Sequence record: OZ035822.1
Strand: one strand, 5' to 3'
DNA from: Vectrevirus PDP21P6
DNA length: 44,789 nucleotides
Shown here: positions 30 through 33,542 of the stretch, piece after piece
How the letters are laid out: every line of letters starts with the position of its first letter
How positions within the stretch are numbered: the stretch's first letter is position 1
Program-made: the position numbers and the translations under genes
Notes under the pieces: generated by a model
What the model was told of the DNA's origin: nothing
The model's database searches: none
The model's input: the letters and a program-made list of their open reading frames with translations, nothing else

Positions 30-329
30 GTGAGCGTACATAACAAACATGCAGCTACAGAAGACGAGGTTGGCATTCTGCATGGTGCTATTACCAAAAT
101 CTTCAATAAGAAAGCACAGGCAATACTGGACACTATAGAAGAAGACCCTGATGCAGCATTACATTTAGTGTCTGGTAAGGATATTGGTGCGATGTGTAAG
201 TGGGTTCTTGATAACGGCATTACCGCCACACCTGCTGCACAGCAGGAAGAGTCCAAGTTATCTAAGCGCCTCAAGGCTATCCGAGAGGCATCCAGTGGCA
301 AGATTATTCAGTTTACAAAAGAGGAGTGA
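30..329 (+). CDS. putative terminase small subunit (T7 gene 18 position)
   Basis: 99-aa ORF, GTG start with AGGAG RBS at 17-21; sits between holin and large terminase as in T7; no motif recognised, call is positional. Confidence 0.45.
   Translation: MSVHNKHAATEDEVGILHGAITKIFNKKAQAILDTIEEDPDAALHLVSGKDIGAMCKWVLDNGITATPAAQQEESKLSKRLKAIREASSGKIIQFTKEE
121..143 (+). promoter_or_regulatory. phage RNAP promoter embedded in terS coding sequence
   Basis: CAATACTGGACACTATAGAAGAA matches the genome-wide promoter core, predicted +1 G at 138. Confidence 0.55.
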
Positions 330-330
330 T

Positions 331-774
331 ATGCATAGATGGTGTGAATCTCAAGGTTATACCATCTTACCTTCTGGTGTCATCCTTTCAAAGGGTGGCA
401 CCCCTCTCAAACCATTCAAGGCGGGTAGGGGTTATTTAGCAGTTAAAATTAAAAATAAAGAAGGTAAATGGCGTAATGTCTATGTTCATCAATTAGTGGC
501 TTATAAGTATTTACCTAAAACTAATAATGAAGTAAACCACAAAGACGGCGATAAGCACAACAATGATGTTAGCAACTTGGAGTGGGTAACAAGAAGCGAG
601 AATAACTATTTAAAATGCAATGGAAATGATAGGAGTGCCTTAAATAGCTATTTAGCAAGATTAAAAGATTGCTTCTTGCAAGGTAAGGGTGTAGCAGAAA
701 CCGCTAGACTTACTGGTAAAAGTGAACCAAGAGTTTCTTCTCTCTTTAAGGAGTGGCGAAATGGCAAAGGCTAG
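331..774 (+). CDS. HNH homing endonuclease (HNH_3-like)
   Basis: ATG 331 after GAGGAG RBS; motif VNHKDGDKHNNDVSNLEWVTRSENN plus C-terminal HTH-like tail; inserted between terminase subunit genes, 3' end overlaps terL start. Confidence 0.75.
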   Translation: MHRWCESQGYTILPSGVILSKGGTPLKPFKAGRGYLAVKIKNKEGKWRNVYVHQLVAYKYLPKTNNEVNHKDGDKHNNDVSNLEWVTRSENNYLKCNGNDRSALNSYLARLKDCFLQGKGVAETARLTGKSEPRVSSLFKEWRNGKG

Positions 775-2659
775 AGAATCACAGGCAGAGGCATTAAAGC
801 GGTGGGAAAACCTTAAAGAACTACAAGACACTTTTAAATATACAGCGGAAGGTTTGCTTCTCTTTGCAGACACAGTTATTCATAACTTGATTGCAGGCAA
901 CCCTCATCTGATTCGTATGCAGGCTGATATCTTGAAGTTCCTATTCTACGGACACAAATATCGCCTCATCGAAGCGCCTCGTGGTATCGCTAAGACAACA
1001 CTATCAGCAATCTATACGGTATTCCGTATTATTCATGAACCGCATAAGCGTATCATGGTTGTGTCACAAAATGCTAAGCGAGCAGAGGAAATCGCAGGTT
1101 GGGTGGTGAAAATCTTTCGTGGCCTAGACTTCCTTGAGTTTATGCTGCCGGATATCTACGCAGGGGACCGTGCATCCGTTAAAGCATTTGAGATTCATTA
1201 CACCCTACGTGGTAGCGATAAGTCCCCCTCTGTATCCTGTTACTCAATCGAAGCAGGTATGCAGGGTGCTCGTGCTGATATTATTCTAGCGGATGACGTT
1301 GAATCGATGCAGAATGCTCGTACAGCAGCAGGCCGTGCATTGCTTGAGGAGTTGACCAAGGAATTTGAATCTATTAACCAATTTGGTGACATCATCTACC
1401 TTGGGACACCTCAGAACGTAAACTCTATCTACAATAACTTACCTGCTCGTGGTTACTCTGTTCGTATCTGGACTGCACGTTATCCTTCAGTGGAGCAGGA
1501 GCAATGCTATGGTGACTTCCTTGCACCTATGATTGTGCAGGATATGAAGGACAACCCCGCACTTCGCTCTGGTTATGGGTTGGACGGTAACAGTGGTGCA
1601 CCTTGCGCACCTGAAATGTACGATGATGAAGTGCTGATTGAGAAGGAAATCTCTCAGGGTGCGGCTAAGTTCCAGCTTCAGTTCATGCTTAACACTCGCA
1701 TGATGGATGCTGACAGATACCCACTTCGTCTAAACAATCTCATCTTCACTTCATTCGGTACTGAGGAAGTCCCTGTGATGCCTACGTGGAGCAACGACTC
1801 CATCAACATCATTGGAGATGCACCGAAGTATGGCAATAAACCTACAGACTTCATGTATCGACCTGTGGCTCGCCCCTATGAATGGGGTGCTGTTACCCGC
1901 AAGATTATGTATATCGACCCAGCGGGCGGCGGTAAGAATGGAGATGAAACGGGTGTAGCGATTGTCTTCCTGCACGGCACATTCATTTACGTGTATCAGT
2001 GCTTCGGCGTGCCAGGCGGATACCGCGAATCGTCCCTGAATCGCATTGTGCAGGCCGCAAAGCAGGCTGGTGTTAAAGAGGTATTCATTGAAAAGAACTT
2101 TGGTCATGGCGCGTTTGAGGCGGTAATTAAGCCTTACTTTGAACGAGAATGGCCTGTGACTCTGGAGGAGGATTACGCCACCGGACAGAAAGAGTTGCGT
2201 ATCATTGAGACGCTAGAGCCACTCATGGCGGCCCACAGGCTCATCTTTAACGCAGAGATGGTGAAATCGGACTTTGATTCGGTACAGAACTATCCGCTTG
2301 AGCTACGCATGTCCTACAGCCTTTTCAATCAAATGTCGAACATCACGATTGAGAAGAACAGCCTCCGGCACGATGACCGCTTAGACGCTCTGTATGGCGC
2401 TATACGGCAATTAACTTCTCAGATAGACTATGATGAGGTTACACGGATTAATCGCCTCAGAGCGCAGGAGATGCGCGATTACATCCATGCTATGAACACA
2501 CCTCACCTCCGTAGGGCGATGCTCTATGGAGATTATGGCACTGAGCGAAGAGTAACCAACACTTCCGTGGCTATGCAGCAAAGAGTGTACGGTCAGAATT
2601 ACAGGAGTAAATCGGCAAATCGAAATACACTTTCTGCAAGGATTTCAAGGACTTATTAA
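761..2659 (+). CDS. terminase large subunit (DNA maturase B)
   Basis: ATG 761 with AGGAG RBS 748-752; deviant Walker A PRGIAKTT and Walker B IILADDVE typical of T7 gp19-like terminases; 632 aa. Confidence 0.85.
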   Translation: MAKARESQAEALKRWENLKELQDTFKYTAEGLLLFADTVIHNLIAGNPHLIRMQADILKFLFYGHKYRLIEAPRGIAKTTLSAIYTVFRIIHEPHKRIMVVSQNAKRAEEIAGWVVKIFRGLDFLEFMLPDIYAGDRASVKAFEIHYTLRGSDKSPSVSCYSIEAGMQGARADIILADDVESMQNARTAAGRALLEELTKEFESINQFGDIIYLGTPQNVNSIYNNLPARGYSVRIWTARYPSVEQEQCYGDFLAPMIVQDMKDNPALRSGYGLDGNSGAPCAPEMYDDEVLIEKEISQGAAKFQLQFMLNTRMMDADRYPLRLNNLIFTSFGTEEVPVMPTWSNDSINIIGDAPKYGNKPTDFMYRPVARPYEWGAVTRKIMYIDPAGGGKNGDETGVAIVFLHGTFIYVYQCFGVPGGYRESSLNRIVQAAKQAGVKEVFIEKNFGHGAFEAVIKPYFEREWPVTLEEDYATGQKELRIIETLEPLMAAHRLIFNAEMVKSDFDSVQNYPLELRMSYSLFNQMSNITIEKNSLRHDDRLDALYGAIRQLTSQIDYDEVTRINRLRAQEMRDYIHAMNTPHLRRAMLYGDYGTERRVTNTSVAMQQRVYGQNYRSKSANRNTLSARISRTY

Positions 2660-2680
2660 TTACTGGACACTATAGAAGGA
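2658..2680 (+). promoter_or_regulatory. phage RNAP promoter
   Basis: AATTACTGGACACTATAGAAGGA, +1 G at 2675, directly after terL stop. Confidence 0.7.
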
Positions 2681-2751
2681 AGGCCCAGATAATAAGAGAA
2701 ATAACAAGGATAATATAGGTTAACCTAGGTTATATAGGTATGCCTTAGTAT

Positions 2752-2771
2752 GGGTGTACTCCTGTACACCC
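2752..2771 (+). promoter_or_regulatory. leader stem-loop (possible RNase III site or mRNA-stabilising hairpin)
   Basis: perfect inverted repeat GGGTGTAC-tcct-GTACACCC in the 5' UTR downstream of the 2658 promoter. Confidence 0.4.
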
Positions 2772-2813
2772 TATTCCTTACTTCCTTACTATACTTACAT
2801 AATAGGAGAGAGA

Positions 2814-3092
2814 ATGTCTAATAGTTATAGTACACAACCCCTTACCGGTAAGTCTGCTCGTAAGCAGATACAACCTGTGAGTGAAGCCCTGATGCTTCCT
2901 GTAGTTTACGAGGACACTGTTGAGAAGAAAGGTGATGTTATTAATGATGCCACCAAATCAGGTAAGCAGAAAGGAGCCATGGTGTGTCTTGATACACATG
3001 ATACACTGGTTATTGCTATCGCAGTTGATGGCAAAGAAGATTCCAATTGGCTGACCACGTTATTAGCGGTCACAACTATTACCCCAGCTTAA
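2814..3092 (+). CDS. hypothetical protein, tandem paralog A
   Basis: ATG 2814 with AGGAGAG RBS; 92 aa; shares LPVV..KK.D.IN..SGKQKG.MV...L.IAIA...W..T...TP.A pattern with next ORF. Confidence 0.6.
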   Translation: MSNSYSTQPLTGKSARKQIQPVSEALMLPVVYEDTVEKKGDVINDATKSGKQKGAMVCLDTHDTLVIAIAVDGKEDSNWLTTLLAVTTITPA

Positions 3093-3104
3093 GAGGAGAA
3101 TTAC

Positions 3105-3392
3105 ATGTCTAATTATGGAAACGCAGGTACTGTTACTGGTCAAGCTTTTCGAGTAAAAACTGTACAAACCACTGCAACGGCAATCCCTTTGCCTATTGTT
3201 GCTGAAGCAGACCTTAAGAAGAAAGATCACCCTATCAACATTAAACACCTATCTGGCAAACAGAAAGGCTCCATGGTTGCTGTAGAGAAAGCAGACAACT
3301 CCTTGTACATCGCTATTGCACGTGGTAGTGAACCAACTGACCCTTGGGATGCAACCACTATGGAGGAGACACCTGTAACCCCTGTAGCTTAA
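3105..3392 (+). CDS. hypothetical protein, tandem paralog B
   Basis: 95 aa, AGGAGA RBS, clear paralog of 2814-3092. Confidence 0.6.
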   Translation: MSNYGNAGTVTGQAFRVKTVQTTATAIPLPIVAEADLKKKDHPINIKHLSGKQKGSMVAVEKADNSLYIAIARGSEPTDPWDATTMEETPVTPVA

Positions 3393-3413
3393 TTGTAACA
3401 GATGAGGTCGGTG

Positions 3414-3758
3414 ATGCTTAATAAATACTTCAAGCGACGCGAGTTCGCTTGCCGTTGTGGGTGCGGTACATCCACTGTTGATGCTGAGTTATTACAGGTA
3501 ATCACAGATGTGCGTGAGTACTTCGGTGCTCCTGTGGTTATTACCTCTGGTCATCGCTGTGCAAAGCACAATGCTAAGGTAGGTGGAGCTAAGAACTCCA
3601 TGCATCTTACTGGTAAGGCTGCTGACATTAAGGTACAAGGAATTACACCTTACCGCGTATGGTCTTATCTAACAGCACGCTACCCCAATAAATATGGCAT
3701 TGGGTCTTATCCTAACTTCACCCATATTGATGTACGGAATGGGTGTGCACGATGGTAG
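3414..3758 (+). CDS. endolysin, peptidase M15 family (L-alanyl-D-glutamate peptidase-like)
   Basis: ATG 3414 with GAGGT RBS; motifs ITSGHRCAKHNAKVGGAKNSMHLTGKAADI and FTHID typical of zinc M15 peptidoglycan peptidases. Confidence 0.75.
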   Translation: MLNKYFKRREFACRCGCGTSTVDAELLQVITDVREYFGAPVVITSGHRCAKHNAKVGGAKNSMHLTGKAADIKVQGITPYRVWSYLTARYPNKYGIGSYPNFTHIDVRNGCARW

Positions 3759-4016: not shown

Positions 4017-4230
4017 GGTACTTGAGGTGGTGGCAGGTCTTATTGGCCTGCTGCTTGCCGCTAAGAAAAAGAAGGAAGAGAAGGAGGCACAAAGTGAGGC
4101 GAATCATGCTAGCGACAATCCTGCTGATTGGTTCGCTGATCACTTCAGGGTGTCAGACGGCGTTACCAGAGAATCCAAAGGTAAAGCCCCTGAAGCCGAC
4201 GCTGACGGCAGTTTACGAGGTGGACGATAA
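4009..4230 (+). CDS. putative i-spanin (Rz-like)
   Basis: 73 aa, GTG start, N-terminal TM segment then charged region; overlaps a downstream out-of-frame lipoprotein ORF; short for an i-spanin. Confidence 0.4.
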   Translation: MNKVLEVVAGLIGLLLAAKKKKEEKEAQSEANHASDNPADWFADHFRVSDGVTRESKGKAPEADADGSLRGGR

Positions 4231-4303
4231 GGTCTGCTTCAGTAAGCCTGACGCTACACAATTAGGTCTGTACATTCTCTCGCTAGAACGCGGGTATAAT
4301 TAA
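4106..4303 (+). CDS. putative o-spanin (Rz1-like lipoprotein)
   Basis: ATG 4106 after AGGAGG; MLATILLIGSLITSGC signal with lipobox-like TSGC then proline-rich short mature region; overlapped architecture with 4009-4230. Confidence 0.5.
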   Translation: MLATILLIGSLITSGCQTALPENPKVKPLKPTLTAVYEVDDKVCFSKPDATQLGLYILSLERGYN

Positions 4304-4332
4304 TACATAGTTTTATGTATCAGTGTCTTACG

Positions 4333-4355
4333 ATTTACTGGACACTATAGAAGAG
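4333..4355 (+). promoter_or_regulatory. phage RNAP promoter
   Basis: ATTTACTGGACACTATAGAAGAG, +1 G at 4350, upstream of tailspike 1. Confidence 0.7.
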
Positions 4356-4434
4356 ATAAGATAGTGCCGTTCTTTTGAGCGGCCTATTACTAGCCAATCT
4401 TCATGGTGAGGGTTGGGAAGTAATAGGAGATAAA

Positions 4435-6342
4435 ATGGCTAAATTAACCAAACCTAATACTGAAGGAATCTTGCATAAGGAAGACTCTTTGTATGAGTAC
4501 CTTGATGCGAGAGAGAGTATAGTTTTAACATCAAAGCCGTTTGGTGCAGTAGGTGATGCTACTACTGATGATACGGAGGTTATAGCTGCTTCACTAAACT
4601 CTCAAAAAGCTGTCACAGTCTCAGACGGTGTATTCTCTAGCTCTGGTATTAATAGTAATTACTGTAACTTAGACGGTAGAGGTAGCGGGGTGCTAAGTCA
4701 CCGTTCCAGTACAGGTAACTACTTAGTATTTAACAATCTACGTGCAGGTCGCTTAAGTAATATTACGGTAGAGAGTAATAAGGCGACTGATGATACTCAG
4801 GGGCAGCAGGTATCTCTTGCTGGTGGCAGTGATGTTACTGTAAGTGACGTTAACTTCTCAAACGTTAAAGGTACTGGTTTCAGTTTAATAGCATACCCTA
4901 ATGGTGCGCAACCTAATGGGCTTATGATTAAAGGCATTCGAGGTAGCTACTCTGGCTATGCTACTAATAAGGCTGCTGGATGCGTACTTGCTGACTCCTC
5001 AGTTAACTCTCTCATAGATAACGTCATTGCTAAGAGCTATCCTCAGTTCGGAGCTGTAGAGCTGAAAGGTACAGCCAGTTATAACATAGTAAGTAATGTT
5101 ATAGGGGCAGATTGCCAGCATGTAACTTACAACGGCACTGAAGGGCCAATAGCTCCTTCTAATAACCTTATCAAGGGGGTGATGGCTAATAACCCTAAGT
5201 ATGCAGCGGTTGTTGCAGGAAAAGGAAGTACGAACTTAATCTCAGACGTGCTCGTAGATTACTCAACTTCTGATGCTAGGCAGGCTCATGGTGTTACCGT
5301 AGAAGGATCTGATAACGTCATAAATAATGTGCTTATGTCAGGATGTGATGGTACTAACTCTTTAGGACAAGGGCAGACTGCTACAATTGCACGCTTTATA
5401 GGTACAGCTAATAACAACTATGCGTCTGTATTTCCTAGCTACAGTGCTACAGGTGTTATTACCTTCGAACCCGGCTCTACCCGTAACTTCGTAGAGGTAA
5501 AGCACCCTGGCAGGAGAAACGACCTTCTCAGTTCTGCTAGTACTATTGACGGTGCAGCTACTATTGACGGCACTAGTAATAGTAACGTAGTGCACGCACC
5601 TGCATTAGGACAGTACATAGGTAGTATGTCAGGTAGGTTCGAATGGCGGATTAAGTCCATGTCACTCCCTTCAGGCGTTCTTACTTCTGCTGATAAGTAC
5701 AGAATGCTTGGAGATGGTGCTGTGTCATTAGCTGTAGGTGGGGGCACTTCTTCTCAAGTTCGCCTATTTACTTCTGATGGTACTTCTCGGACAGTGTCCC
5801 TCACCAACGGTAACGTGCGTCTTTCTACCAGTAGCACAGGCTTTTTGCAGTTAGGCGCTGATGCAATGACCCCAGACAGTACTGGTACATACGCATTAGG
5901 TTCCGCCAGCCGAGCATGGTCTGGCGGTTTTACTCAAGCAGCATTCACTGTTACCTCAGATGCTCGGTGTAAAACAGAACCTCTTACTATCTCAGATGCC
6001 TTACTGGATGCTTGGTCTGAAGTTGACTTTGTGCAGTTTCAGTATTTGGATCGTGTTGAGGAGAAGGGTGCAGACTCAGCTAGATGGCACTTCGGTATCA
6101 TCGCTCAGCGAGCTAAGGAGGCTTTCGAACGTCACGGTATAGATGCACATCGCTATGGCTTCTTGTGCTTCGACAGTTGGGATGATGTATACGAGGAAGA
6201 TGCCGATGGCTCTCGTAAACTGATTACACCAGCAGGTTCCCGCTACGGTATTCGTTACGAGGAAGTGCTGATATTAGAGGCTGCGTTGATGCGGAGGACT
6301 ATTAAGCGTATGCAGGAAGCACTAGCTTCCCTGCCTAAGTAA
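4435..6342 (+). CDS. tailspike 1 (beta-helix depolymerase-like) with C-terminal intramolecular chaperone domain
   Basis: ATG 4435 with AGGAGA RBS; N-terminal GAVGDATTDDT pectate-lyase-like signature; C-terminal SDARCK...HFGIIAQRAKEAF segment resembles peptidase S74 autocleaving chaperone. Confidence 0.8.
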   Translation: MAKLTKPNTEGILHKEDSLYEYLDARESIVLTSKPFGAVGDATTDDTEVIAASLNSQKAVTVSDGVFSSSGINSNYCNLDGRGSGVLSHRSSTGNYLVFNNLRAGRLSNITVESNKATDDTQGQQVSLAGGSDVTVSDVNFSNVKGTGFSLIAYPNGAQPNGLMIKGIRGSYSGYATNKAAGCVLADSSVNSLIDNVIAKSYPQFGAVELKGTASYNIVSNVIGADCQHVTYNGTEGPIAPSNNLIKGVMANNPKYAAVVAGKGSTNLISDVLVDYSTSDARQAHGVTVEGSDNVINNVLMSGCDGTNSLGQGQTATIARFIGTANNNYASVFPSYSATGVITFEPGSTRNFVEVKHPGRRNDLLSSASTIDGAATIDGTSNSNVVHAPALGQYIGSMSGRFEWRIKSMSLPSGVLTSADKYRMLGDGAVSLAVGGGTSSQVRLFTSDGTSRTVSLTNGNVRLSTSSTGFLQLGADAMTPDSTGTYALGSASRAWSGGFTQAAFTVTSDARCKTEPLTISDALLDAWSEVDFVQFQYLDRVEEKGADSARWHFGIIAQRAKEAFERHGIDAHRYGFLCFDSWDDVYEEDADGSRKLITPAGSRYGIRYEEVLILEAALMRRTIKRMQEALASLPK

Positions 6343-6427: not shown

Positions 6428-8224
6428 ATGCTTCAAAGATTAAGCACTGCCTTGGTGCGGTATAAAAGTAAAATGTCAGGTGCAATAGGTCGTATATTGC
6501 AAGAAAGACTAGAAGATACGTTAAATGCAAAAGACTTTGGTGCAAAATGTAATGGAGTGGATGATGATACAATCCCTCTCAACAATGCAGCAACAGCAGC
6601 ACGCCTTAAAGGAGTCAAACTCGTAATAACAGGGTCTTGCCTAACAACTGACACAGTTAACTTTAGAGAGGTACTGCTAGAGGCATCAAGTGCTACATTT
6701 ATTATTAAACACGAGGGTGTTGGTGTTATCTTGGGTGGTAATGCAAGTGTGCACAATAACCCCAAGCAAGAGTTTGGTATGACAGAAAGACTTGTTGGGT
6801 CTGCATCTCTAGACACCCCTGATGTACGTATAATGGGTGCCAAGTGCCAACACATTAGCATAGAGAAGTCTGATTACCTTCAGCTATATGCAGATTCAGA
6901 TGAATCAGTATATGAAAAGGACTACTCTATCGCGTATTCCACTTTTACCTTAAAGTATGTTAAAACAATCAACATACGCGGGATTAATCGTGGTTGGATT
7001 AATGAGAACCAGTTCTTCTTAAATAGAACACATTTTGTGACAATACAAGATGGCAATTACTCTCATAACCACAATAAATTCTTTGGTGGCACTATGGAAG
7101 AGAAAGGTGCTATAGATATACAGAGAGGTCATAATAATCACTTCTTTGGGCTTCGATTCGAAAGAGATGGCTCTAAGCCAGATAGAACACTAGACATCAA
7201 GTTTGGTTCTTATACATGGAATAATTCAATTGAAGCATCGTGGCTTAGCTCTGCTGCATATAGCAACGAACCATATAACCCAAATAATCTTGTCACTGTT
7301 ACAGATTTAGGTAGAGGTAATGCTGTACGCCATATACAAGAAGATTTAACAGATGAGATCCCTTTGCTTTCACTAAGTGGAAAGGCAGACTACATCTCTA
7401 GTACCAACCTAGGTACTGTAAGCCAACCTGTTGTTATAACTAACTTCCCTAATATATATAATATTAGACACCTAGTATCAAGCAAGTTTTCTGTTGTAAG
7501 AAATTTCTACCCTATATGGGAGTCTGGTAATTTAGAGGTAAGGAATGGAGACTTATTCACATTCTGCTCTGATGTACCTATCTTCCGTATGCGTCTATTT
7601 ATATTAGATGCGCAAGGTAATGTAATCACTGAGCAATTAGATGATGATGTATCATTCCCTGGTAGTTCTTGGAATGCACAATTAAGTATGTATACAAATA
7701 CTACCAATATTGATGTTGCTAAAATACGTGTCACTAATAGTTCTCGTATTAAATACATTCGTCTTGTCTTGATGTCTGGTGGTTCATCTCAAGATAGAGT
7801 CTTTGAATATGCAAGAGTGACTGCAAGATACTATAAGTATTCAAGCTCAACACCTCGTAAGAATATGGATGTTGCCTTAACCTCTTGCTCTGCTATTATG
7901 CCTTATAAGGGCGATGCAGAGATGCAATATATTGGTTACGGTCTGCCTGTTGTTAAGATGGAAGATACGACTAAGAAGGTTAATATAACACGTAATAGGT
8001 ATTCTGTTATTAATGTGTCTGGTTCTTCTATTAAGGTAAGGGTTTCAGGTAGTCTTATATCCGCAGACTCTAACGACTTACATCTTGTATATACAGAGGG
8101 TTCCGCTAATAAAATTATACCTATTCAGTCTTTATCGGATGATACTATTACTTTAACTTCTACTGCACCTACTACTATAGTAGCTAATAGCATGGTAGAT
8201 GTAGTTTGTACAAAGCAGGTGTGA
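6428..8224 (+). CDS. tailspike 2 (beta-helix depolymerase-like)
   Basis: ATG 6428 with AGGAGG RBS; N-terminal DFGAKCNGVDDDT pectate-lyase-like signature; 598 aa; no adaptor domain. Confidence 0.75.
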   Translation: MLQRLSTALVRYKSKMSGAIGRILQERLEDTLNAKDFGAKCNGVDDDTIPLNNAATAARLKGVKLVITGSCLTTDTVNFREVLLEASSATFIIKHEGVGVILGGNASVHNNPKQEFGMTERLVGSASLDTPDVRIMGAKCQHISIEKSDYLQLYADSDESVYEKDYSIAYSTFTLKYVKTINIRGINRGWINENQFFLNRTHFVTIQDGNYSHNHNKFFGGTMEEKGAIDIQRGHNNHFFGLRFERDGSKPDRTLDIKFGSYTWNNSIEASWLSSAAYSNEPYNPNNLVTVTDLGRGNAVRHIQEDLTDEIPLLSLSGKADYISSTNLGTVSQPVVITNFPNIYNIRHLVSSKFSVVRNFYPIWESGNLEVRNGDLFTFCSDVPIFRMRLFILDAQGNVITEQLDDDVSFPGSSWNAQLSMYTNTTNIDVAKIRVTNSSRIKYIRLVLMSGGSSQDRVFEYARVTARYYKYSSSTPRKNMDVALTSCSAIMPYKGDAEMQYIGYGLPVVKMEDTTKKVNITRNRYSVINVSGSSIKVRVSGSLISADSNDLHLVYTEGSANKIIPIQSLSDDTITLTSTAPTTIVANSMVDVVCTKQV

Positions 8225-14822: not shown

Positions 14823-14963
14823 CCGTCGGAGACGGGAAAGAAAGGGAAGATAAAGGATATAAAAGGAAGTAATAGGTATTAAAGGTTATATAGGTTATCT
14901 AGGAATACCTATTACCTCCTTCCTTCCTCTTATTACTACTTAGAGGAAGGGCAGATCTAGGTT

Positions 14964-21612: not shown

Positions 21613-21676
21613 AAGCCTAGGTAACCTAGGTTTATAAGGTAGTATAGGTAATTAAGTAAATATAGGAGATATAAAT

Positions 21677-32266: not shown

Positions 32267-32289
32267 TTTACTGGACACTATAGAAGGGA
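32267..32289 (+). promoter_or_regulatory. phage RNAP promoter for capsid gene
   Basis: ATTTACTGGACACTATAGAAGGG, +1 G at 32283. Confidence 0.75.
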
Positions 32290-32301
32290 GAAATGTCTCC
32301 C
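32286..32301 (+). promoter_or_regulatory. 5'-terminal leader stem-loop of capsid mRNA
   Basis: GGGAGA-aatg-TCTCCC at +4 to +19 of the predicted transcript. Confidence 0.45.
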
Positions 32302-32336
32302 TGAATTATCAATTTGATTTATAAGGAGGTTTATTA

Positions 32337-33542
32337 ATGAGCACCCCGAATAACCTGACCAACGTTGCAGTCTCCTCTTCCGGCGAGGTAGACAGCCTTC
32401 TCATTGAGAAATTCAATGGCAAGGTAAATGAGCAGTACCTGAAGGGTGAGAACATCATGTCCTACTTTGATGTTCAGACTGTTACTGGTACTAACACTGT
32501 AAGCAACAAATATTTGGGTGAAACCGAGTTGCAGGTTCTGGCACCGGGACAGTCTCCGGCTGCAACTTCTACTCAGGCCGATAAAAACCAACTGGTAATC
32601 GATGCCACTGTTATTGCTCGTAACACGGTTGCTCACCTGCATGATGTACAGGGTGACATTGATAGCCTGAAGCCGAAGCTGGCTACTAACCAAGCTAAGC
32701 AGCTTAAGAAGATGGAAGATGAAATGCTGATTCAGCAGATGCTGCTGGGCGGTATTGCTAACACTCAGGCTAAGCGTACTAATCCGCGTGTTAAAGGCCA
32801 TGGCTTCTCTGTCAACGTAGAAGTTGCAGAAAGTGAAGCGCTGGTCAACCCGCAGTATGTAATGGCGGCTGTAGAGTTTGCTCTTGAGCAGCAGCTTGAG
32901 CAGGAAGTAGACATCTCTGATGTAGCTATCCTGATGCCGTGGCGCTACTTCAACGTACTGCGTGATGCAGACCGTATCGTTGACAAGAGCTACACCATTA
33001 GCCAGTCTGGTGCAACCATTCAGGGTTTTGTTCTGTCTTCTTACAACTGCCCTGTTATCCCGTCTAACCGCTTCCCTAAATTCTCTGCTGGTCAGAAACA
33101 TCACCTGCTGTCAAATGAAGACAACGGTTATCGTTATGACCCGACTGCAGAAATGAATGGCGCTATCGCTGTACTGTTCACCGCTGATGCGCTGCTGGTT
33201 GGTCGTTCTATTGATGTTACTGGCGATATCTTCTATGAGAAGAAAGAGAAGACCTACTACATTGATACTTTCATGTCTGAAGGTGCAATCCCTGATCGTT
33301 GGGAAGCAGTGTCTGTTGTGACAACTAAGCGTAACTCATCTACTGGTGATGCTGAGGGTACTGATGGAGCACAGCACACTCAAGTTCTTAACCGTGCACA
33401 GCGCAAAGCTGTATACGTCAAGAATGCTGCTCCGGCAGGTGCTGCCGCTGCTGCTAGTCTGTCTGCTGAAGACTTAGTTGCTGCTGTCCGTGCTGTCATG
33501 GCAAATGACATTAAGCCGACTGCAATGAAACCTGCTGAGTAA
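32337..33542 (+). CDS. major capsid protein
   Basis: 401 aa, AAGGAGG RBS, strong promoter upstream and T-phi-like terminator downstream. Confidence 0.9.
   Translation: MSTPNNLTNVAVSSSGEVDSLLIEKFNGKVNEQYLKGENIMSYFDVQTVTGTNTVSNKYLGETELQVLAPGQSPAATSTQADKNQLVIDATVIARNTVAHLHDVQGDIDSLKPKLATNQAKQLKKMEDEMLIQQMLLGGIANTQAKRTNPRVKGHGFSVNVEVAESEALVNPQYVMAAVEFALEQQLEQEVDISDVAILMPWRYFNVLRDADRIVDKSYTISQSGATIQGFVLSSYNCPVIPSNRFPKFSAGQKHHLLSNEDNGYRYDPTAEMNGAIAVLFTADALLVGRSIDVTGDIFYEKKEKTYYIDTFMSEGAIPDRWEAVSVVTTKRNSSTGDAEGTDGAQHTQVLNRAQRKAVYVKNAAPAGAAAAASLSAEDLVAAVRAVMANDIKPTAMKPAE

Follow-up and report, generated by a model that had tools for sequence, protein, structure and literature searches.

The window analysed here, meaning the whole stretch of 44,789 nucleotides (nt) from Vectrevirus PDP21P6 (OZ035822.1), is a complete or near-complete Vectrevirus genome of 44.8 kb (K1E-like; Autographiviridae, Molineuxvirinae), and we have focused on two small genes that lie in it directly downstream of terL and upstream of the endolysin gene. 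The first (ATG 2814 to TAA 3092, + strand) encodes gp41, a protein of 92 amino acids (aa) and 9.9 kDa, and the second (ATG 3105 to TAA 3392, + strand) encodes gp42, with 95 aa and 10.1 kDa. They are the orthologues of K1E gp41 and gp42 (with 90.5% protein identity between the two gp42 proteins) and represent the first-position and the second-position copy of a protein module that is the subject of this work. On the upstream side lies terL (722..2659, + strand), recognized by its T7-type terminase domain (E = 1.6e-35), and on the other side the endolysin gene (3402/3414..3758), of the Peptidase_M15_3 type (E = 2e-32), followed by holin and then spanin. The gene order is the same in K1E, where genes 41 and 42 are found between the large terminase gene and the endolysin gene 43, and the region 2600..3500 of the window shares 99.9% identity with Vectrevirus PDP21P3 and 92% (nucleotide) with K1E. 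An earlier note on this DNA had already described a pair of open reading frames (ORFs) between terL and an endolysin, and both the pair and its flanks are as it described them.

Both proteins are full-length members of phrog_2725 (gp41 with E = 3e-40 over residues 1-92, gp42 with E = 2e-46 over residues 1-94), and 87 and 94 close homologues were found for gp41 and gp42, respectively. The isoelectric point of gp41 is 5.2 and the maximum hydropathy of any of its 19-residue segments is at most 1.24, with no transmembrane segment detected by hydropathy in either gp41 or gp42. We also considered a gp41-gp42 fusion produced by stop-codon readthrough and rejected it: the window pair is in frame with a spacer of 12 nt, and the spacers of relatives measure 11, 13, 14, or 17 nt, with differing frames.

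An old pair of paralogues

The pairwise alignment of gp41 and gp42 is significant (BLASTP, 36/93 identities or 39%, E = 7e-16), and the motifs that the earlier note had listed as common to both correspond to the positions conserved across an alignment of 68 family sequences, in which 13 columns are invariant, including T11, G12, K18, P30, S50-G51-K52-Q53, M57, A72, W81, and P93. At the nucleotide level the two genes, once codon-aligned, share 52% of their positions and 47% of the third positions. The gp42 of the window is more similar to the second-position copies of other genera (45-51%; 49% to that of SP6, 49% to that of Klebsiella phage S16a, and 45-46% to that of Pectobacterium phage PP1) than to its own neighbor gp41 (39%). 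Judging from these alignments, gp41 and gp42 are true paralogues that diverged anciently, and their duplication is neither recent nor local. The paralogy proposed from the window therefore stands but its local origin does not, the pair being an old array conserved across several lineages.

One apparent variant of this array deserves mention. In P0093 (95 aa) the N-terminal half is of the gp41 type and the C-terminal half of the gp42 type, with the junction at the shared SGKQKGAMV motif, and its gene was found on two metagenome contigs (L035:1632-1919 and L036:1023-1310), both of them ending just 3' of it. Either natural recombination has collapsed the pair to a single gene here, or P0093 is an artefact of assembly.

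Distribution, synteny, and copy number

An exhaustive profile hidden Markov model (HMM) search of 1.84 billion cluster representatives retrieved 212 family members. The module appears after terL in Zindervirus, Vectrevirus, Eracentumvirus, Colwellvirinae (Njord and Vp670), Ralstonia phage Reminis, Klebsiella phages, and unclassified Autographiviridae, and the order terL-module-endolysin of the window is found again in K1E, SP6, CC2, Njord, Vp670, Reminis, Era103, and S16a. Across Molineuxvirinae, Colwellvirinae, and unclassified Autographiviridae, the slot is kept whatever the type of endolysin, be it an M15 peptidase or a gene with lysozyme or lytic transglycosylase as its annotation. The number of copies per genome goes from one (Vp670) to four (S16a), with three short copies in PP1. 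In many Vectrevirus relatives, two short copies are accompanied by a third protein, 225-237 aa long, that has the module as its N-terminus, and this short-plus-long layout is also present in CC2, Era103, S16a, and the locus L006; the window genome has the two short copies only. In Reminis (L037), one short member follows terL (798..1076) and a second one, carrying an Sf6-type knob, is located at 4099..4860.

In SP6 (L002), gp44 (3295..3540, 81 aa) matches the N-terminal module and gp45 (3563..3730, 55 aa) matches the extreme C-terminus of the ~230-aa long paralogue (phrog_32357). By these matches, the two genes look like the split remnants of a disrupted third family gene.

Module sequence and predicted structure

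The family alignment shows a conserved N-terminal arm motif, T-G-(Q/K)..R.K, followed by the core motifs LP(V/I)V, K(K)xD..IN, SGKQKGAMV, and IA(I/V)A, an invariant Trp, and the chain end (V/I)TP(A/V). AlphaFold2 gave, with the family alignment, a modest model of gp42 (predicted local distance difference test, pLDDT, of 69.5), in which an N-terminal arm of ~20-27 residues appears disordered (block-mean pLDDT of 42-50 over residues 1-20) and the core, approximately residues 28-85, is small and beta-rich, with four strands plus short helices and pLDDT values of 78-83. The module, of about 90 residues, would thus be composed of a flexible N-terminal arm and a small beta-rich core. Neither a significant fold match nor a solved structure was found for it, and there was no PDB sequence match, even with an 89-sequence family profile at E <= 10.

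Proteins with three modules in one chain

The best 150 of the 212 representatives include 87 single modules and about 40 proteins, 256-407 aa long, in which three modules stand in tandem; a single protein with two modules was seen, and none with four. In six of the ~40 triples (P0234, P0236, P0254, P0276, P0283, and P0311) only two repeats score, the third being degenerate or unscored. A larger protein with nine apparent stretches, P0320 (893 aa), was lost when a broader profile was used, and we discarded it as a spurious low-complexity repeat match. The genomic location of the triple proteins could be followed in a few loci: the one in L004 comes directly after terS and terL, and those in L005 and L007 are on short contigs in which the upstream gene is cut, with a long paralogue as the next gene in L007.

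The AlphaFold2 model of one of them, P0189, made from a 37-sequence alignment, reached a mean pLDDT of 86.8 and a predicted template modelling score (pTM) of 0.79, values which argue that the three modules form one defined compact body. The strict repeat count of three suggests, in turn, that the free modules assemble three at a time. When gp41, gp42, and the long paralogue were compared with repeats 1, 2, and 3 by HMM scores, to look for a one-to-one orthology, there was a weak preference only, of gp42 for repeat 2 and of gp41 for repeat 1.

Domains fused to the module

Other relatives have a single N-terminal module followed by a different kind of domain. An Ig-like (immunoglobulin-like) domain is found in the 178-aa protein of S16a (Ig_2, 28.9 bits versus a cut-off of 27) and in P0269 (Ig_3, 34.7 versus 30; I-set, 28.9 versus 23.7). 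The Sf6-type tail-needle knob PF16532 is found after the module in P0260 (E = 1.7e-30) and P0324 (E = 5e-43). P0309 combines the module with a C-terminal segment similar to the phi29 head fibre, of which only the C-terminal part of PF11133 matches, and both P0309 and Era103 gp48 contain a fibre-type motif, A-x-T-x-x-(K/G)G-V, and then a helical heptad-like stretch. Both the Sf6 knob and the phi29 head fibre form homotrimers on the exterior of the virion, and phage Ig-like domains are reportedly almost confined to structural proteins. With such fusion partners, some of which are trimeric, the module thus acts like an anchor from which trimeric appendages are displayed at the surface. By analogy, the bare copies would be anchor-only versions of it.

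These fusions also bear on a quite different explanation, namely that gp41 and gp42 are non-structural late proteins, either accessories of DNA packaging and maturation or modulators of lysis timing, that act in the cytoplasm and are not part of the particles. Their position between the terminase and the endolysin/holin/spanin cassette, within the transcription unit of the latter, would fit such proteins, but neither of them has a membrane segment, the synteny survives alongside endolysins of unrelated types, and the Ig-like, needle-knob, and head-fibre fusions, together with the single-chain triples, are hard to explain for a cytoplasmic regulator. We find this explanation rather improbable.

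Promoter, leader hairpin, and translation signals

The pair is preceded by a K1E/SP6-type phage RNA polymerase promoter (2656..2680, + strand; TTAATTACTGGACACTATAGAAGG) that fits the promoter consensus of the genome itself. Its core, CACTATAGAAG, is at 2668..2678, with the full ATTACTGGA directly upstream, and transcription would start, taking the SP6 promoter as a model, at the G in position 2675. Allowing for one mismatch at most, the window contains 12 matches to the core, where chance would give 1.1 (eight of the 12 are exact, the site at 2668 included), which bears out the late promoter that had been noticed upstream of the pair, and the aligned promoter contexts of the window give the consensus aTTTACTGGACACTATAGAAG. 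K1E, SP6, and ~20 related loci have this promoter ahead of the gene pair too. A full K1E-type promoter core is also present inside the terS coding sequence (131..141, + strand), a position at which K1E and many relatives conserve it.

Between the promoter and gene 41, the leader RNA contains the hairpin that the earlier note had pointed out (2752..2771, + strand; GGGTGTAC-TCCT-GTACACCC), with a perfect stem of eight base pairs, a loop of 4 nt, and a pyrimidine-rich tract 3' of it. The 37-nt hairpin segment has a folding energy of -14.7 kcal/mol (z = -4.4), while the whole 156-nt leader has no unusual structure (z = -0.01). We folded the leader segments of nine lineages singly, as the MAFFT alignment prepared for RNAalifold misplaced the stems, and in all nine a hairpin was found at the equivalent leader position, with energies of -12.8 to -14.9 kcal/mol and three different stems (GGGUGUAC/GUACACCC, GGGAGGUA/UACCUCCC, and GGGUAC/GUACCC). 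A hairpin that is kept at the same place with three different stems is therefore a structure under selection, and mRNA stabiliser, processing site, and pause site are candidate roles for it. The leaders of the genome have further features. TAGGT-rich short repeats (e.g., ATATAGGTTAACCTAGGTTATATAGGT) are found at 2715..2745, ~14880..14910, and ~21625..21665 (+ strand), in the transcribed leaders of the promoters at 2668, 14810, and 21600, as well as in the equivalent leaders of relatives. The promoter of the major capsid gene (promoter region 32276..32310, + strand; gene 32337..33542) has a hairpin directly after it, at the 5' end of the transcript (GGGAGAAATGTCTCCC), this being another highly expressed late gene with a structured leader.

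Read from the sequence, the Shine-Dalgarno of gene 41 is AGGAGA (2804..2809, + strand), inside a (GA)n tract, and that of gene 42 is GAGGAGA (3093..3099, + strand). The (GA)n tract that separates the former from the ATG of gene 41 (2804..2813) reads AGGAGAGAGAATG in the window and AGGAGAGAGAGAGAGAGAGAATG in K1E. Its length differs among close relatives (K1E, which is our locus L001, L008, L009, and L014), a variation that could tune gp41 translation.

Annotation and rejected identities

The public names of the ~200 homologues are either "hypothetical protein" or "acetyl-CoA acetyltransferase", with no alternative name among them. The latter label has spread over dozens of phage records (K1E gp41/gp42 and SP6 gp42/gp43 among others) and to phrog_2725, and the earliest use of it that we located is an entry in a table for UAB_Phi78, which comes without explanation (PMC4837284). 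Pfam has no family for gp41 or gp42 at E <= 1, and none across 89 family members at E <= 0.01; NCBIfam has no family for either protein, and neither of them matches any enzyme family.

An enzyme of this kind or, alternatively, a GroES-like co-chaperonin is hardly credible as the identity of these proteins. In favor of the first there is the name itself, given to the family by both PHROG and RefSeq, and in favor of the second a weak match of gp41 to Cpn10/GroES (PDB 4v4o, E = 1.3; NCBIfam, 13.1 bits). However, the N- and C-terminal thiolase domains are absent from gp41 and gp42, with no thiolase or acetyltransferase Pfam domain at E <= 1, and at 92 and 95 aa the proteins are about a quarter of the length of a thiolase (~390 aa). 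Because there are no thiolase domain matches and the size is a quarter of that expected, the name "acetyl-CoA acetyltransferase" has no basis and is unsupported. As for GroES/Cpn10, the 13.1 bits of gp41 compare with an NCBIfam cut-off of 122, gp42 gives nothing, and the family profiles have no PDB match. A role in defence or anti-defence was also discarded, since the search against the PADLOC defence systems gave nothing below E = 0.03 and a single weak match, to gp41.

That the function of the pair could not be recognized from sequence, as the earlier note had it, is correct for the two proteins alone, which have no Pfam, NCBIfam, or PDB match, but not for the family, for which the domain fusions of the relatives and the use made of the same slot in phage PhiM1 (see below) permit a reasoned functional inference.

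Proposed function

We propose that gp41 and gp42 are anchor-only, trimer-forming proteins of the virion surface, probably capsid cement, a proposal drawn from sequence comparison, models, and analogy to which we give roughly even chances. Three modules would assemble around a threefold or pseudo-threefold axis, and the resulting trimer would dock on the outer surface of the virion, most likely on the T=7 capsid at the local threefold positions between capsomers. The bare modules gp41 and gp42 would act there as cement or decoration, while in the longer paralogues of related phages the module would anchor an Ig-like domain, a knob similar to tumour necrosis factor (TNF-like), or a short coiled-coil fibre. 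We infer that gp41 and gp42 trimerise, that they are part of the virion, and that they bind to the capsid rather than to the tail. Both genes are late and their products are probably made in large amounts, as they have their own phage promoter, a presumably stabilising leader hairpin, and strong ribosome-binding sites, a combination that would suit a protein of which each particle requires hundreds of copies.

Several points weigh against this proposal. The accessible literature contains no virion proteomics or high-resolution capsid structure for phages that carry the family and no genetics of these genes and, to our knowledge, the low-resolution reconstructions of K1E and K1-5 report no decoration. 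The pseudo-threefold symmetry of the triple protein is deduced from the repeat number and the pTM only. The copy number varies from 1 to 4 across phages, so a fixed heterotrimer of gp41, gp42, and a third member cannot be general; separate homotrimers, perhaps on different quasi-equivalent sites, would be more plausible, although this is speculation. Finally, the knob domain is originally known from a tail needle, and the knob-bearing member of Reminis is not beside terL but follows an unannotated gene at the right end of the genome, whose 595-aa product is possibly a tail fibre or tailspike.

Given the needle origin of the knob and the neighborhood of a putative tail gene in Reminis, a location in the tail is therefore possible. 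The module would then serve as a trimeric domain for docking to the tail, at its adaptor, nozzle, or tailspike base. As small proteins, gp41 and gp42 would decorate or cap the tail, with the long paralogues as auxiliary side fibres. We regard this tail-associated role as unlikely, though less so than a non-structural one.

Starting again from trimeric decoration of the capsid, one can go further, in a version of the proposal that we put forward as a tentative and somewhat doubtful possibility. SP6/K1E-type capsids, usually seen as bare T7-like shells, might carry an unseen set of trimeric decorations of a new fold. Each of the two to four paralogues in a genome would be adapted to a particular class of local threefold site on the T=7 lattice, whether beside pentons, between hexons, or on the strict threefold axis. 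In some relatives three modules would have been fused to give a single-chain pseudo-trimer, and in others the module would serve as a universal plug for Ig, knob, or fibre domains.

Phages like K1E, K1-5, and SP6 are workhorses of capsule-targeting phage therapy and of the biology of the T7 supergroup, and all of them have here two well-expressed late genes with no function assigned and with a wrong enzyme name propagated by RefSeq and PHROGs, so that the correction of the annotation is useful whichever explanation proves right. If a trimeric surface anchor is indeed what these genes encode, they would define a new structural family of decoration proteins and account for the variable gene cassette found beside the terminase across several lineages of Autographiviridae. 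They would also provide a natural display scaffold, on which Ig, knob, and fibre domains have already been hung, usable for phage particle engineering. Overall, profiles, models, and analogies point to a module that is widespread, misannotated, and apparently novel in structure, and they make a coherent, indirect case for a role at the virion surface.

Other features of the window

Some other genes of the window are worth recording. An ORF for an HNH_3 endonuclease (184..774, + strand; E = 4e-11) is placed between terS (30..329) and terL and overlaps both, whereas in K1E the homing endonuclease (gene 40.5) splits terL into 40A and 40B. Downstream, a tailspike gene (4375..6342, + strand) encodes a C-terminal Peptidase_S74 intramolecular chaperone domain of the endosialidase type (E = 1.6e-14), and it is followed by an ORF of 598 aa (6428..8224, + strand), with no Pfam match, that is possibly a second receptor-binding protein.

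Comparison with known systems

The mechanism proposed here for gp41 and gp42 would be that of the trimeric cements. Lambda gpD, phage L Dec, and P74-26 gp87 are small late proteins with flexible arms that form trimers at the local threefold sites of HK97-fold capsids. Unlike the module, none of these families is known as a single-chain triple repeat, and no homology of gpD, Dec, or gp87 to the module was found by sequence profile or fold search. More widely, the known decoration families (gpD, Soc, Dec, Hoc, pb10, and alpha-claw) show no homology to it.

A second likeness is to phi29 gp8.5 and T4 Hoc, which the head-fibre-like relative P0309 and the Ig-like relatives (the S16a 178-aa protein and P0269) resemble in their anchor-plus-display arrangement. 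The proteins of the window differ in that they have no display domain, and the anchor is related neither to the base of gp8.5, as only the C-terminal part of PF11133 matches, nor to the capsid-binding domain of Hoc.

The use of the same genomic slot is best illustrated by the Pectobacterium phage PhiM1 (Autographiviridae, Corkvirinae), in which terL is directly followed by two genes with products of 62 and 179 aa. The two, PhiM1_47 and PhiM1_48, come after maturase B, and their products are identical in sequence to chains H and J in PDB 8VB0, the solved structure of the decoration proteins alpha-claw (gp44) and alpha-paw (gp43). The latter have been described as paralogous capsid decoration proteins with a common attachment motif, one of them bare and the other with a projecting arm (PMC11440229). 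They differ from the module in that they dimerise by a helix-turn-helix motif and act as clips at twofold and quasi-twofold interfaces, whereas the module of gp41 and gp42 is predicted to consist mainly of beta strands, besides two short helices, and a threefold arrangement is suggested by its repeat number, and the 8VB0 chains have no sequence or fold similarity to it. The likeness is in the organization: in both cases, within the Autographiviridae, a pair of genes occupies the position directly after terL and before the lysis genes, and a short anchor-only paralogue accompanies a longer one that has the same N-terminal attachment motif and a C-terminal projecting domain, a layout seen in the family as a whole, with only the short members in the window. 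Similar decoration pairs have been reported in Shigella phage HRP29/Buco and in the phiKMV-like phage Ar-KM, in the latter case as a decoration protein plus a spike.
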